Origin: Escherichia phage N4
Length of the DNA: 64,000 nt
Sequence record: NC_008720.1
Reading direction: 5' to 3' (one strand)
Position 1 is the stretch's first letter, and every line of letters starts with the position of its first letter. Positions 25,525-25,978 of the stretch are shown in pieces. The notes under the pieces are model-generated. The model searched no databases and was not told the origin of the DNA. It worked only from the letters and a program-made list of their open reading frames with translations. A program made the position numbers and the translations under genes.

Positions 25525-25959
25525 ATGCAAGTAATCCTGACCCAACCTGAAATCGAAGCTGCTCTGACTGGTTATGTAAACGACCTGATGTCTGTACGTG
25601 AAGGTATGGAAATTAAAGTAACCTTCAAAGCTACTCGTGGTGATGATGGTGCTACTGCAATCGTAGATATTGTCCCTGCTGGTTCCCAATCTGTTGAAGT
25701 GGTTGAGGAACCAAAGAAAGAATCAAAGGAACGCAAGCATCGTCCAGTAACCCAGACCAATACTGCTGCTGTCAGTGCTCTGGCTTCTGCTACTGGTAAG
25801 AAAAAAGAAGAAGTAGTTGAAGTAGAAACTACTACTGAAACTGTTGATGAAACTGTAGAAGTAGCTGAAGAAGCTGCTGCTCAGGAAGAAGAAAAGAAGT
25901 ACAGGAAGAAGAGGCTAAAGAACCAGTACAAGCCAAACCTTCTCTGTTTGCAGGTCTGA
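25525..25959 (+). CDS. Hypothetical acidic protein (144 aa)
   Basis: SD AAGG; Glu/Val/Thr-rich low-complexity C-terminal half; 3' end has an alternative reading frame (see findings). Confidence 0.45.
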   Translation: MQVILTQPEIEAALTGYVNDLMSVREGMEIKVTFKATRGDDGATAIVDIVPAGSQSVEVVEEPKKESKERKHRPVTQTNTAAVSALASATGKKKEEVVEVETTTETVDETVEVAEEAAAQEEEKKYRKKRLKNQYKPNLLCLQV

Positions 25960-25978
25960 AACGTTAATATCTGGGTGA

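Follow-up and report, generated by a model that had tools for sequence, protein, structure and literature searches.

Results

A single missing base separates the two reading frames of gp47

The gp47 gene of Escherichia phage N4, as written in the reference record, very probably lacks one A of an A5 run, so that a C-terminal docking tail shared with the phage SSB is read out of frame; together with a role for gp47 as a resolvase-linked adaptor, which we infer, this is the best explanation of the data as a whole. We analyzed 64,000 nucleotides of sequence record NC_008720.1, referred to below as the window, and the features under discussion are collected in Table 1.

Table 1. Features of the gp44-gp47 region in the window
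Feature	Position	Strand	Evidence or remark
gp44, Sak4-like (AAA_24) RecA-like, first gene of the conserved four-gene module	23367..24122	+	phrog_124 E = 5.1e-45; PF13479 E = 7.8e-12
gp45, N4 SSB, 265 aa	24168..24965	+	phrog_743 E = 4.8e-77
SSB N-terminal peptide MSNLFGNLA, same core as the gp47 tail	24168..24194	+	tethered flexibly
SSB C-terminal peptide K259-S-L-F-G-K-K265 and stop	24942..24965	+	holds S260, K264, and K265
gp46, RuvC-like Holliday-junction resolvase	24965..25522	+	phrog_159 E = 5e-40
gp47, true gene span, 443 nt here, 444 nt with the A restored	25525..25967	+	restored product 147 aa
gp47 as written in the N4 record (YP_950525.1), 144 aa	25525..25959	+	right to about codon 124, then frameshifted basic tail KYRKKRLKNQYKPNLLCLQV
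gp47 N-terminal domain, residues 1-52: helix 7-21, beta-hairpin 28-36/43-51	25525..25680	+	AF2 pLDDT ~90
gp47 acidic low-complexity disordered linker	25681..25934	+	pLDDT ~52
A4 homopolymer, site of the single-base deletion (A5 in relatives)	25892..25895	+	alignment, A-run counts, exact-string scan
Docking-peptide tail KPSLFAGLKR and TAA	25935..25967	+	-1 frame relative to the ATG of the record; 27.6 bits

The original prediction had described a 144-aa ORF with a basic tail, a -1 frame stopping at 25965-25967, and a likeness of that frame to the SSB C-terminus AAKSLFGKK, and all of these features were present in the window, the SSB ending included (24168-24965). The 144-aa product of ORF 25525-25959 (+) ends ...EEEKKYRKKRLKNQYKPNLLCLQV. 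The -1 frame is open from 25869, being preceded by a TGA at 25866-25868, and reads RSCCSGRRKEVQEEEAKEPVQAKPSLFAGLKR up to the TAA at 25965-25967. Two copies of CAGGAAGAAGA lie in this region, at 25882-25892 and 25902-25912; since their spacing is 20 nt here but 21 nt in the relatives, the window alone has the copies in different frames.

Comparison with related phages located the difference in one homopolymer. All six aligned relatives (6/6) had GAAGAAAAAGAAG, and the window had GAAGAAAAGAAG instead. The A5 run was found first in 16/16 and then in 23/23 of the relatives' loci, and A4 was found in the window and its IMG/VR copy; an exact-string scan of IMG/VR returned the A4 string solely from the 70,153-bp N4 record. 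In line with this, the 144-aa form of gp47 was a singleton cluster on one contig (70,153 bp), whereas the 147-aa form occurred on 24 contigs. The relatives carry gp47 as one ORF each, of 143, 147, or 151 aa, ending in KPSLFAGLKR, and the basic tail of the N4 record was found in no other sequence searched. With the A restored, the 147-aa protein is identical to P0002 of phages PMBT57, Jura, and AL25, and it matches phrog_7641 end to end (residues 1-147 against 1-150 of 151). With one base lost from the A5 run, translation would leave its true frame 24 codons short of the natural stop, so that in the N4 record an unconserved basic tail takes the place of the conserved C-terminus.

The two frames could also be brought together at the A-run by programmed -1 ribosomal frameshifting or by slippage during transcription, either of which would produce gp47 isoforms with the basic tail and with the SLF tail. 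An A_AAG tetramer does lie in the zero-frame register (25893-25896, split as 25893/25894-96), and a slip there would yield exactly the gp47 sequence of the relatives. However, the relatives do not share the two-frame layout: in each one examined, a single ORF with A5 runs into the SLF tail in frame 0, and the basic tail occurs in no other sequence. A run of four A is far too short for efficient slippage by RNA polymerase. The absence of a canonical slippery heptamer, already noticed in the original prediction, held on inspection, no X_XXY_YYZ being found at the gp47 3' end despite the tetramer in register. Nor was a stimulatory RNA structure detected, as the fold of 25897-25975 had a z of +0.55 and 143 of 200 shuffles folded as well. 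A_AA.G is the most shift-prone tetramer of E. coli, and tetramers without a stimulator give ~0.147% frameshifting against a background of 0.112% (PMC4066793). Set beside the programmed -1 sites of E. coli, phages, and insertion sequences (dnaX A_AAA_AAG; IS3/IS911; A_AAG, PMC4066793), gp47 is alike in its in-register A_AAG and its alternative -1 C-terminus, but it has neither heptamer, stimulator, nor conserved two-frame layout, and the frame-0 product of its relatives is the "-1" product. We consider recoding extremely improbable, and the original prediction was right not to commit itself to it. By comparison with the relatives, the "-1 frame" appears to be the ancestral reading frame of gp47, and thus would not reflect recoding.

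gp47 belongs to a large schitovirus family with a conserved tail

gp47 is a member of a large schitovirus family whose proteins have an N-terminal domain joined to a C-terminal tail by a disordered, acidic linker that varies between members. A profile of the N-terminal domain alone retrieved 1,425 cluster representatives. The consensus of this domain (~52-55 aa), MQ.x.L.Q.E[IV]E.A...G...ATRG..G.TA..DI.P, is matched by N4 gp47. No solved structural relative of the domain was recognised, and gp47, SSB, and gp46 are all without a Pfam family. The linker holds an in-frame 12-nt repeat of varying copy number, a QEEE repeat, and the A-run; it is unalignable between distant orthologues and differs by 12-nt indels among close relatives. 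In the AF2 model, the pLDDT climbs to 74-77 in the tail. One apparent member, P0190 (1,301 aa, with 11 domain "repeats"), was a eukaryotic SPRY and coiled-coil protein and was discarded as a spurious match, and the "gp47" of bioRxiv 10.64898/2026.06.04.730250 is an unrelated tail-fibre chaperone of phage Ab09.

The family tail has the near-invariant form [KR]x-SLF-[AG][GN]-L-[KR][KR], which in the record is met only by the -1 frame (25935-25964) and not by the product as written. Across 80 divergent members, F142 was invariant and S140, L141, and L145 were conserved in at least 90%; distant orthologues with 29-41% identity also kept the tail. It was present in 145 of the 150 divergent family representatives found via the N-terminal domain alone and in 74 of the 75 syntenic orthologues, the N4 record being the sole exception. 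Retention of the annotated basic tail in orthologues, which the original prediction had named among the grounds for rejecting it, was seen in none of them. A 10-mer PSSM was built from 141 tails of other gp47-family members, with the N4 group left out. KPSLFAGLKR (25935-25964) scored 27.6 bits, the best in the six-frame translation of the 64 kb, and the runner-up scored 10.7 bits. A gp47 made from the reference N4 sequence as written would lack the docking tail.

The same peptide occurs at both termini of SSB

The peptide is present in three copies: MSNLFGNLAGQ at the SSB N-terminus, GASAAKSLFGKK, and EPVQAKPSLFAGLKR. The gp47 tail and both SSB ends (MS(N)LFGNLK..., ...KSLFGKK) share the core S-L-F-small-x-(L/K)-K. 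In the AF2 model of SSB, the core (residues 30-232) had pLDDT >90, and two tethers, residues 18-24 and 234-259, were both <50. At the C-terminus, L261 and F262 were invariant, and [LMI]F was found in the last 10 residues of 121/121 homologues. At the N-terminus, F5 was invariant, L8 was conserved in at least 90%, and [LMI]F was found in the first 8 residues of 101 of the 121 homologues; this N-terminal copy had been overlooked in the original prediction.

Considering that the -3..+6 window of the 10-mer cannot fit either SSB terminus, a 6-residue core PSSM derived from gp47 tails was used for SSB. The best window was a terminal peptide in 118/121 homologues, and the N-terminal peptide was the best in 94/121. 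Both termini were the top two windows in 93/121, with 13.5 and 8.8 bits compared with shuffled means of 2.4 and -0.3.

These scores bear on whether the likeness between the gp47 and SSB tails is a coincidence or a product of compositional bias in basic disordered tails. The motif is short, and its basic residues are spaced differently (SLF-G-KK at the SSB C-terminus, SLF-AGL-KR in gp47). Against this stand the PSSM built from gp47 tails, whose scores at the two SSB ends far exceed those of shuffled sequences, and the conservation pattern, since outside the folded domains no positions of SSB or gp47 are more conserved than those of the motif. Among 32,059 aa of six-frame ORFs, a strict form of the motif had a single match, the SSB C-terminus. 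Moreover, many gp47-family tails read SLFGNLKKP, equal residue for residue to the SSB N-terminus MSLFGNLK, and the two genes are always neighbours. A chance or compositional likeness is thus very improbable. Coincidence, which the original prediction had listed as an option, is contradicted by the gap between the 27.6-bit tail and the 10.7-bit runner-up and by a conserved peptide common with SSB; its option of a shared C-terminal peptide is borne out, as the restored gp47 tail is conserved and common to SSB.

Two further comparisons were made between the tails. The basic pair lies one residue past SLF in the SSB C-terminus and three past it in gp47, so the receptors of the two could differ. 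Loss of the Ser appeared to co-vary between SSB C-termini and gp47 tails (2x2 table 44/5/0/2; Fisher p = 0.016, uncorrected for phylogeny and dependent on two double-loss cases), but this signal is too weak to use.

gp47 is encoded next to, or fused with, a Holliday-junction resolvase

The SSB stop and the gp46 start share 1 nt, and 2 nt separate the end of gp46 from the gp47 ATG. The order Sak4-like gene, SSB, resolvase, gp47 was kept in 75/75 loci having enough downstream DNA. A Sak4-like gene was present in 79/79 SSB loci, which made its presence or absence uninformative as a test of the receptor. The layouts across loci comprised a RuvC-like gene followed by gp47 (53), RusA-gp47 fusions (9), and a RusA-like gene followed by gp47 (3). 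At locus L022, for example, a RusA::gp47 fusion stands in place of the gp46 and gp47 of N4, and the N-terminal parts of the fusion proteins matched RusA-like PHROGs with E = 2.7e-34.

Thus, in every locus resolved, gp47 is encoded directly after, or is fused to, a RusA- or RuvC-like phage Holliday-junction resolvase (phrog_1682, phrog_159). gp47 itself has no nuclease domain, and an add-on module of this kind (domain, acidic linker, docking peptide) is not described for cellular RuvC or RusA. On the basis of the gene fusion and synteny, we propose that the N-terminal domain of gp47 may contact the resolvase, which is consistent with gp47 being a resolvase-linked adaptor that uses an SSB-type docking peptide.

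The missing base may be a record error or a mutation of laboratory N4

The original prediction had also offered a sequencing indel as an option. A single-base indel (A4 instead of A5) private to the record is indeed there, and its origin as a sequencing error stands at even chances. With the indel and the shared peptide both in place, two of the three options then put forward hold together.

If the A is missing through a sequencing or assembly error, real N4 would have an intact 147-aa gp47. The record departs from the relatives by +/-1 in a homopolymer, and the sole other genuine single-base indel private to the window in the 64 kb is of the same kind (A7 versus A6 at 26675-26681, ~790 bp away). 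The 72 nt 3' of the A-run show no private decay and translate into a tail identical to that of the relatives, and the near-invariance of the tail across the family implies strong selection. On the other hand, sequencing usually gets through an A4/A5 run without difficulty, and the N4 record is otherwise clean: across the 64 kb, private indels leave every other conserved CDS intact. Decades of laboratory passage would also have given N4 the opportunity to lose an accessory function. In the same survey, a private +1 indel at 14442 was set aside because it lies at the edge of a divergent block with the local ORF intact, as were the paired indels 6903/6907 and 28351/28354, which are compensating changes in hairpin loops.

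The same facts fit equally well with a genuine mutation in the N4 strain kept in laboratories, whose gp47 would then be without its docking tail, and we rate this reading as slightly short of even. Natural mutation by homopolymer slippage is common, the 12-nt copy-number changes among relatives show the linker to be prone to indels, and three other gp47-family database members (P0243, P0251, and P0269) look frameshifted too. However, the tail is kept in 74/74 other syntenic orthologues, so phages without it should be at a disadvantage, in nature at least, and no second sequence with A4 was found. A search for an independent N4 assembly using the exact N4 gp46 returned 19 contigs; all of the 10 listed had an intact gp47 and were only ~98% identical to the window, and therefore none of these is N4 itself. 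Of the predicted tryptic peptides, EPVQAKPSLFAGLK corresponds to intact gp47 and NQYKPNLLCLQV to frameshifted gp47.

Discussion

The "activating region" of N4SSB, comprising S260, K264, and K265, activates E. coli sigma70 RNA polymerase via the beta' C-terminus (Miller et al. 1997, as cited in PMC2784036 and PMC4496689). The region coincides with one of the three peptide copies described here: S260 is the conserved Ser of K-S-L-F-G-K-K, and K264/K265 are its basic pair. The candidate equivalents in the gp47 tail are S140 and K146/R147, although there the basic pair lies two residues further from SLF. In the literature, the activating region is ascribed to N4SSB alone, and the invariant L and F are not among the residues named. 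Our alignments indicate instead a peptide that is conserved across all schitovirus SSBs, is duplicated at the SSB N-terminus, and is also carried by the resolvase-linked gp47.

This arrangement recalls the SSB-Ct hubs (E. coli ...DDDIPF; HK620 SSB, PMC5928155), where a disordered SSB tail ends in a short and conserved peptide that cannot do without its aromatic residue and to which proteins of replication and recombination are recruited. In phage HK620, the last six residues of SSB are needed for binding of Sak4 (PMC5928155), and N4 likewise has a Sak4-like gene adjoining its SSB gene. N4 SSB and gp47 also carry a conserved peptide at the extreme C-terminus past a disordered linker. The N4 peptide differs from DDDIPF in being basic and flanked by Lys/Arg rather than acidic, with its Phe 3-5 residues from the end. 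It also differs in standing at both SSB termini, and gp47, on the partner side, bears the same peptide and not a pocket.

In T4 gp32, the N-terminal B-domain is a terminal tail that links SSB protomers. PrgE of pCF10, the nearest PDB match to the N4SSB model, is a monomeric filament-forming SSB whose protomers are linked by an N-terminal tail (bioRxiv 10.1101/2024.03.13.584862), and PRD1 P12 has a protomer-linking C-terminal helix and a disordered tail with a conserved basic tip (PMC11886824). All three are monomeric OB-fold SSBs with tethered terminal peptides, as N4SSB appears to be, and contact with the neighbouring protomer is known in those systems. Unlike N4, none of them has a second protein bearing the same peptide.

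Taken together, gp47 may act as an accessory or tethering subunit of the resolvase. Its tail would dock at a receptor site also used by the SSB termini, and docking would either bring the resolvase to SSB-coated replication or recombination intermediates or compete with SSB for the site. As for the receptor, the SSB core or filament is our tentative first candidate. Host RNA polymerase beta' is a less likely but possible one, on a par with the Sak4-like gp44 or another phage replisome protein, and some other receptor is less likely again. A wider and rather speculative reading is that S-L-F-x-x-(L/K)-K is a general schitovirus docking code, by which the SSB termini and gp47 would share one site, either an SSB-core groove that builds the filament or a conserved region at the RNAP beta' C-terminus; laboratory N4 would then perhaps be a natural tail-less gp47 mutant.

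The host beta sliding clamp was also considered, since SLF resembles its binding motif (QL[SD]LF) and recruitment of the clamp by SSB and gp47 would account for the peptide. The Dalrymple consensus clamp-binding motifs have an [SD]-L-F core and lie terminally on a disordered tether. The peptide likewise has such a core, with S-L-F near-invariant, at the terminus of a disordered tether, and a minority of members have a Q two residues ahead of the S (RQSLF). Nevertheless, most members have Lys/Arg in place of the hallmark Gln of position 1; among 51 unique motif pairs, position -3 was mostly R/K in the SSB C-terminus and K, P, or R in gp47. The motif also runs on as a conserved x-x-L-[KR][KR]-P-x-N, which is no feature of clamp motifs. 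Furthermore, N4 replication is not known to depend on host Pol III, and the clamp loader is a target of inhibition by N4 gp8. A clamp-binding role is very improbable.

For the type phage N4, the C-terminus of the RefSeq gp47 (YP_950525.1) is either wrong or strain-specific, and cloning, structure prediction, or interactor searches that start from the reference gp47 would miss its only conserved linear motif. A large and previously uncharacterised family (1,425 cluster representatives; "unknown function" in PHROG) is now defined by a clear architecture and by its genomic partner, a Holliday-junction resolvase. The classic N4SSB "activating region" is recast as one of three copies of a peptide in a replication/recombination module. 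If the docking code proves general, the activating region would serve as a common handle, linking the coating of ssDNA with Holliday-junction resolution and with late transcription. The three-copy peptide opens a way to the partner of the SSB tail and to the coupling of replication, recombination, and late transcription in N4-like phages.

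A single-base difference behind the two gp47 frames

The annotated frame of gp47 ends in a basic tail (...EEEKKYRKKRLKNQYKPNLLCLQV), and the -1 frame through its 3' end reads ...EVQEEEAKEPVQAKPSLFAGLKR, resembling the SSB C-terminus AAKSLFGKK, all as originally predicted. The gp47 of Escherichia phage N4 (ABK54415.1 / YP_950525.1) is exactly the product of the annotated ORF, and this 144-aa product forms a singleton protein cluster from one contig (70,153 bp). The region around the gp47 tail was compared with 14 N4-group Enquatrovirus genomes, which were 97.7-98.4% identical. 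The relatives' copies of the gene have annotated lengths of 432, 444 or 456 nt, all multiples of three, and encode a single protein ending ...QEEEKEVQEEEAKEPVQAKPSLFAGLKR. DNA alignment revealed that the sole relevant difference was an A5 run in the relatives (GAAGAAAAAGAAG) versus A4 in the window (GAAGAAAAGAAG), the remaining length differences reflecting changes in the linker's 12-nt repeat, which keep the frame.

Features of the gp44-gp47 region and its surroundings (window positions)
Feature	Position	Remark
gp44, Sak4-like	23367-24122	first in the order gp44, gp45, gp46, gp47
gp45, SSB	24168-24965	ends AAKSLFGKK
SSB residues 1-9	24168-24194	MSNLFGNLA
SSB stop/gp46 ATG	24963-24967	overlap by one base
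gp46, RuvC-like	24965-25522	between SSB and gp47
gp46 stop/gp47 ATG	25520-25527	2 nt apart
gp47	25525-25959	as annotated, 144 aa; TGA at 25957-25959
12-nt linker repeat GAAACTGTxGAx	25837-25863	encodes ETVD/ETVE
-1 frame	from 25869	TAA at 25965-25967
A4 run	25892-25895	A5 in relatives
KPSLFAGLKR	25935-25964	gp47 tail peptide
Hydrophobic ORF	25979-26146	55 aa, right after gp47
tRNA-Thr	26472-26547	
A7 run	26675-26681	A6 in relatives
tRNA-Pro	26901-26977	

The A5 run was found in 16/16 relatives' loci (up to 10.4 kb) and, in a later count that took in ten added contigs with an N4-exact gp46, in 23/23. In IMG/VR, the A4 string occurred only in the 70,153-bp N4 record itself. With one A restored, gp47 had exactly the 147-aa sequence encoded by PMBT57, Jura and AL25, a protein present on 24 contigs, and it matched phrog_7641 end to end. 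The duplicated CAGGAAGAAGA motif noticed earlier is present, with its copies 20 nt apart in the window and 21 nt apart in the relatives, where both encode QEEE; because of this spacing, only in the window do they lie in different frames. Of the explanations originally offered, these comparisons thus support an indel: the two-frame layout results from the loss of one base in a homopolymer, seen only in the N4 reference record. The copy number of the 12-nt repeat also differs among close relatives, generating gp47 forms of 143, 147 and 151 aa, which shows that the linker is prone to slippage.

Recoding was considered and rejected: the two-frame layout was not conserved, the overlap held no canonical slippery heptamer, as already stated in the original prediction, and the RNA 3' of the A-run folded no better than shuffled sequences (z = +0.55). 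An A_AAG tetramer is present in register at the A-run. In E. coli, tetramers lacking a stimulator shift frame at about 0.147% versus a background of 0.112%, and a pseudoknot is needed for A_AA.G to reach as much as 5.6% (PMC4066793). At most, slippage could yield a trace of the correct gp47 protein.

Sequencing error or strain mutation

Window-private indels were counted across the whole 64 kb against two complete relatives, and seven events were detected. Two pairs among them were compensating changes inside hairpin loops: the paired +1/-1 differences at 6903-6907 and 28351-28354 lie in what are probably terminator loops of G+C-rich hairpins (ggggttatatagtagcccc; gcccctcattagaggggc) and look like small loop rearrangements, not frameshifts. 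Another, at 14442, was dismissed as an alignment-edge artefact beside a divergent block, the local ORF being intact. The two genuine private indels were the gp47 A-run and an intergenic A7 run between two tRNA genes, which is A6 in 8/8 relatives compared. That two private A-run changes lie only ~790 bp apart suggests a local sequencing problem; natural slippage fits the missing A equally well. An independent N4 assembly was sought via the N4-exact gp46, and none was found among the contigs listed, each of which had an intact gp47 and about 98% identity to the window.

The gp47 family and its conserved tail

A profile of the gp47 N-terminal domain only (E <= 0.001) retrieved 1,425 cluster representatives. 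Among the best 150 of these, 145 carried a C-terminal [KR]x-SLF-[AGS][GN]-L-[KR][KR]-P-x-N. The other five (P0243, which ends KKKLQPKLPLLCVVPYLVV, P0251, P0269, P0162 and P0175) look truncated or frameshifted; in other records as well, indels or assembly errors may be common in the repetitive, AG-rich linker. Distant orthologues (29-41% identity) kept the tail though their linkers were unalignable (RQSLFAGLKK, KKQLFQNLRK, RPSLFAGLQK, KPSLFAGLRR and KPSLFAGLKRS). In an 80-sequence family alignment, three columns were invariant, F142 among them, and conservation was >= 90% at S140, L141 and L145.

The same peptide at both ends of SSB

In 121/121 SSB homologues (down to about 40% identity), [LMI]F occurred within the last ten residues, typically as [KR]xSLFGKK, and 101/121 started with MS(x)LFGNL[KT]; F5, L261 and F262 were invariant. 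The N-terminus MSNLFGNLA has the SLF-G-x-L core of the gp47 tail, so SSB bears the peptide at both ends; the N-terminus matched the gp47 consensus better than the C-terminus did. We then scored the homologues with a 6-residue PSSM built from gp47-family tails only, with the N4 group excluded. The best window was N-terminal in 94, C-terminal in 24 and internal in 3, and the two top windows were exactly both terminal peptides in 93/121. Coincidence, also raised originally, is contradicted by median scores of 13.5 and 8.8 bits versus shuffled means of 2.4 and -0.3. In a six-frame translation of the whole window, KPSLFAGLKR was the top family-tail match (27.6 bits; runner-up 10.7), and the only real N4 genes in the window carrying the peptide were SSB, at both ends, and the restored gp47. 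The conserved putative docking peptide common to the SSB termini and this resolvase-linked family is real and undescribed.

AlphaFold2 was run with family alignments for both proteins. For gp47, it predicted a 52-residue domain (helix 7-21, hairpin 28-36/43-51, pLDDT about 90) and a disordered linker (about 52), with the last 17 residues back up to 74-77. A search for solved structural relatives of this domain found none. The confident SSB core (residues 30-232) bore only a distant resemblance to OB-fold SSBs, with PrgE as the top match. At the N-terminus of SSB, the peptide had a short helix at 6-13 and pLDDT about 70 and was followed by a linker below 50, and in the disordered tail 234-259 and beyond, only S260-L261-F262 exceeded 50. 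Because low-pLDDT linkers separate them from the cores, all three peptides are predicted to be tethered linear motifs that do not belong to a core.

Genomic context and the link to resolvases

Among 80 IMG/VR schitovirus loci located through SSB, 75 had a gp47-family ORF downstream; the other five were cut off within 900 bp past SSB or had SSB at the contig end. Instead of the basic tail, 74 of these 75 syntenic ORFs had the SLF tail, the exception being the N4 record. A RuvC-like resolvase lay between SSB and gp47 in 53 loci, a RusA-like resolvase carried the gp47 module as a C-terminal fusion in 9, and a separate RusA-like gene preceded the module in 3; a crude ORF filter left ten loci unassigned. 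The fusion partners matched RusA-like PHROGs (E = 2.7e-34). In locus L022, the fusion gene (2726-3637) occupies the place of N4 gp46 and gp47, the RusA-like fusion protein standing in for RuvC-like gp46; fusions with domain, linker and SLF tail also occur in L045, L087, L088, L091-L094, L096 and L103. The pairing of one module with two unrelated resolvase folds, once by fusion, argues strongly on comparative grounds that gp47 works with the resolvase. As the Sak4-like gene was present in 79/79 loci, Sak4-like protein, SSB, resolvase and gp47 make up a constant four-gene module. The tight packing of SSB, gp46 and gp47 suggests translational coupling.

Annotation within the module is inconsistent: gp46 starts later (165 aa) in PMBT57 and OLB145 (L002, L006 1426-1923) than in other relatives (L001, L003, L004 1366-1923; 185 aa, overlapping the SSB stop), and gp44 of Jura is flagged as a pseudogene. 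The strongly hydrophobic 55-aa ORF (MVATKLLLGVVVFIVLILLIVRII...; phrog_19025, E = 3.4e-7), annotated in AlfredRasser (bas69_0030) and unannotated in most relatives, is probably a small membrane protein. In the Logan schitovirus contig L011 (3062-4610), which is only remotely related to N4 in its gp47 and SSB, the Sak4-like gene is split (3062-3394 and 4188-4607) by an inserted 163-aa ORF (3530-4021), possibly through insertion of a homing endonuclease or an intron.

Precedents and interpretation

PMC2784036, citing Miller et al. 1997, names S260, K264 and K265, the Ser and Lys-Lys of the SSB C-terminal motif, as the activating-region residues of N4SSB. In HK620, the last six SSB residues are required for Sak4 binding (PMC5928155), a precedent for an SSB terminal peptide recruiting the partner encoded by a neighbouring gene. 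Terminal peptides also join SSB protomers into filaments: the PrgE N-terminal tail links protomers (bioRxiv 10.1101/2024.03.13.584862), as does the C-terminal helix and tail of PRD1 P12, with its conserved basic tip (PMC11886824). We infer an adaptor role for gp47 with the resolvase, in which its tail would use a receptor site common with the SSB termini, candidates being the SSB core, beta', the Sak4-like protein or another protein. Caution is due on a common site, because the spacing of the basic pair differs between the SSB C-terminus and gp47 and their co-variation is weak (Fisher p = 0.016, resting on two cases).

The frame overlap is thus not a recoding event; it is a private one-base homopolymer deletion. 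The SSB-like resemblance is real and leads to a previously undescribed, conserved putative docking peptide, found at both ends of SSB and in a family of proteins linked to resolvases, a variation on known SSB-tail-mediated recruitment.
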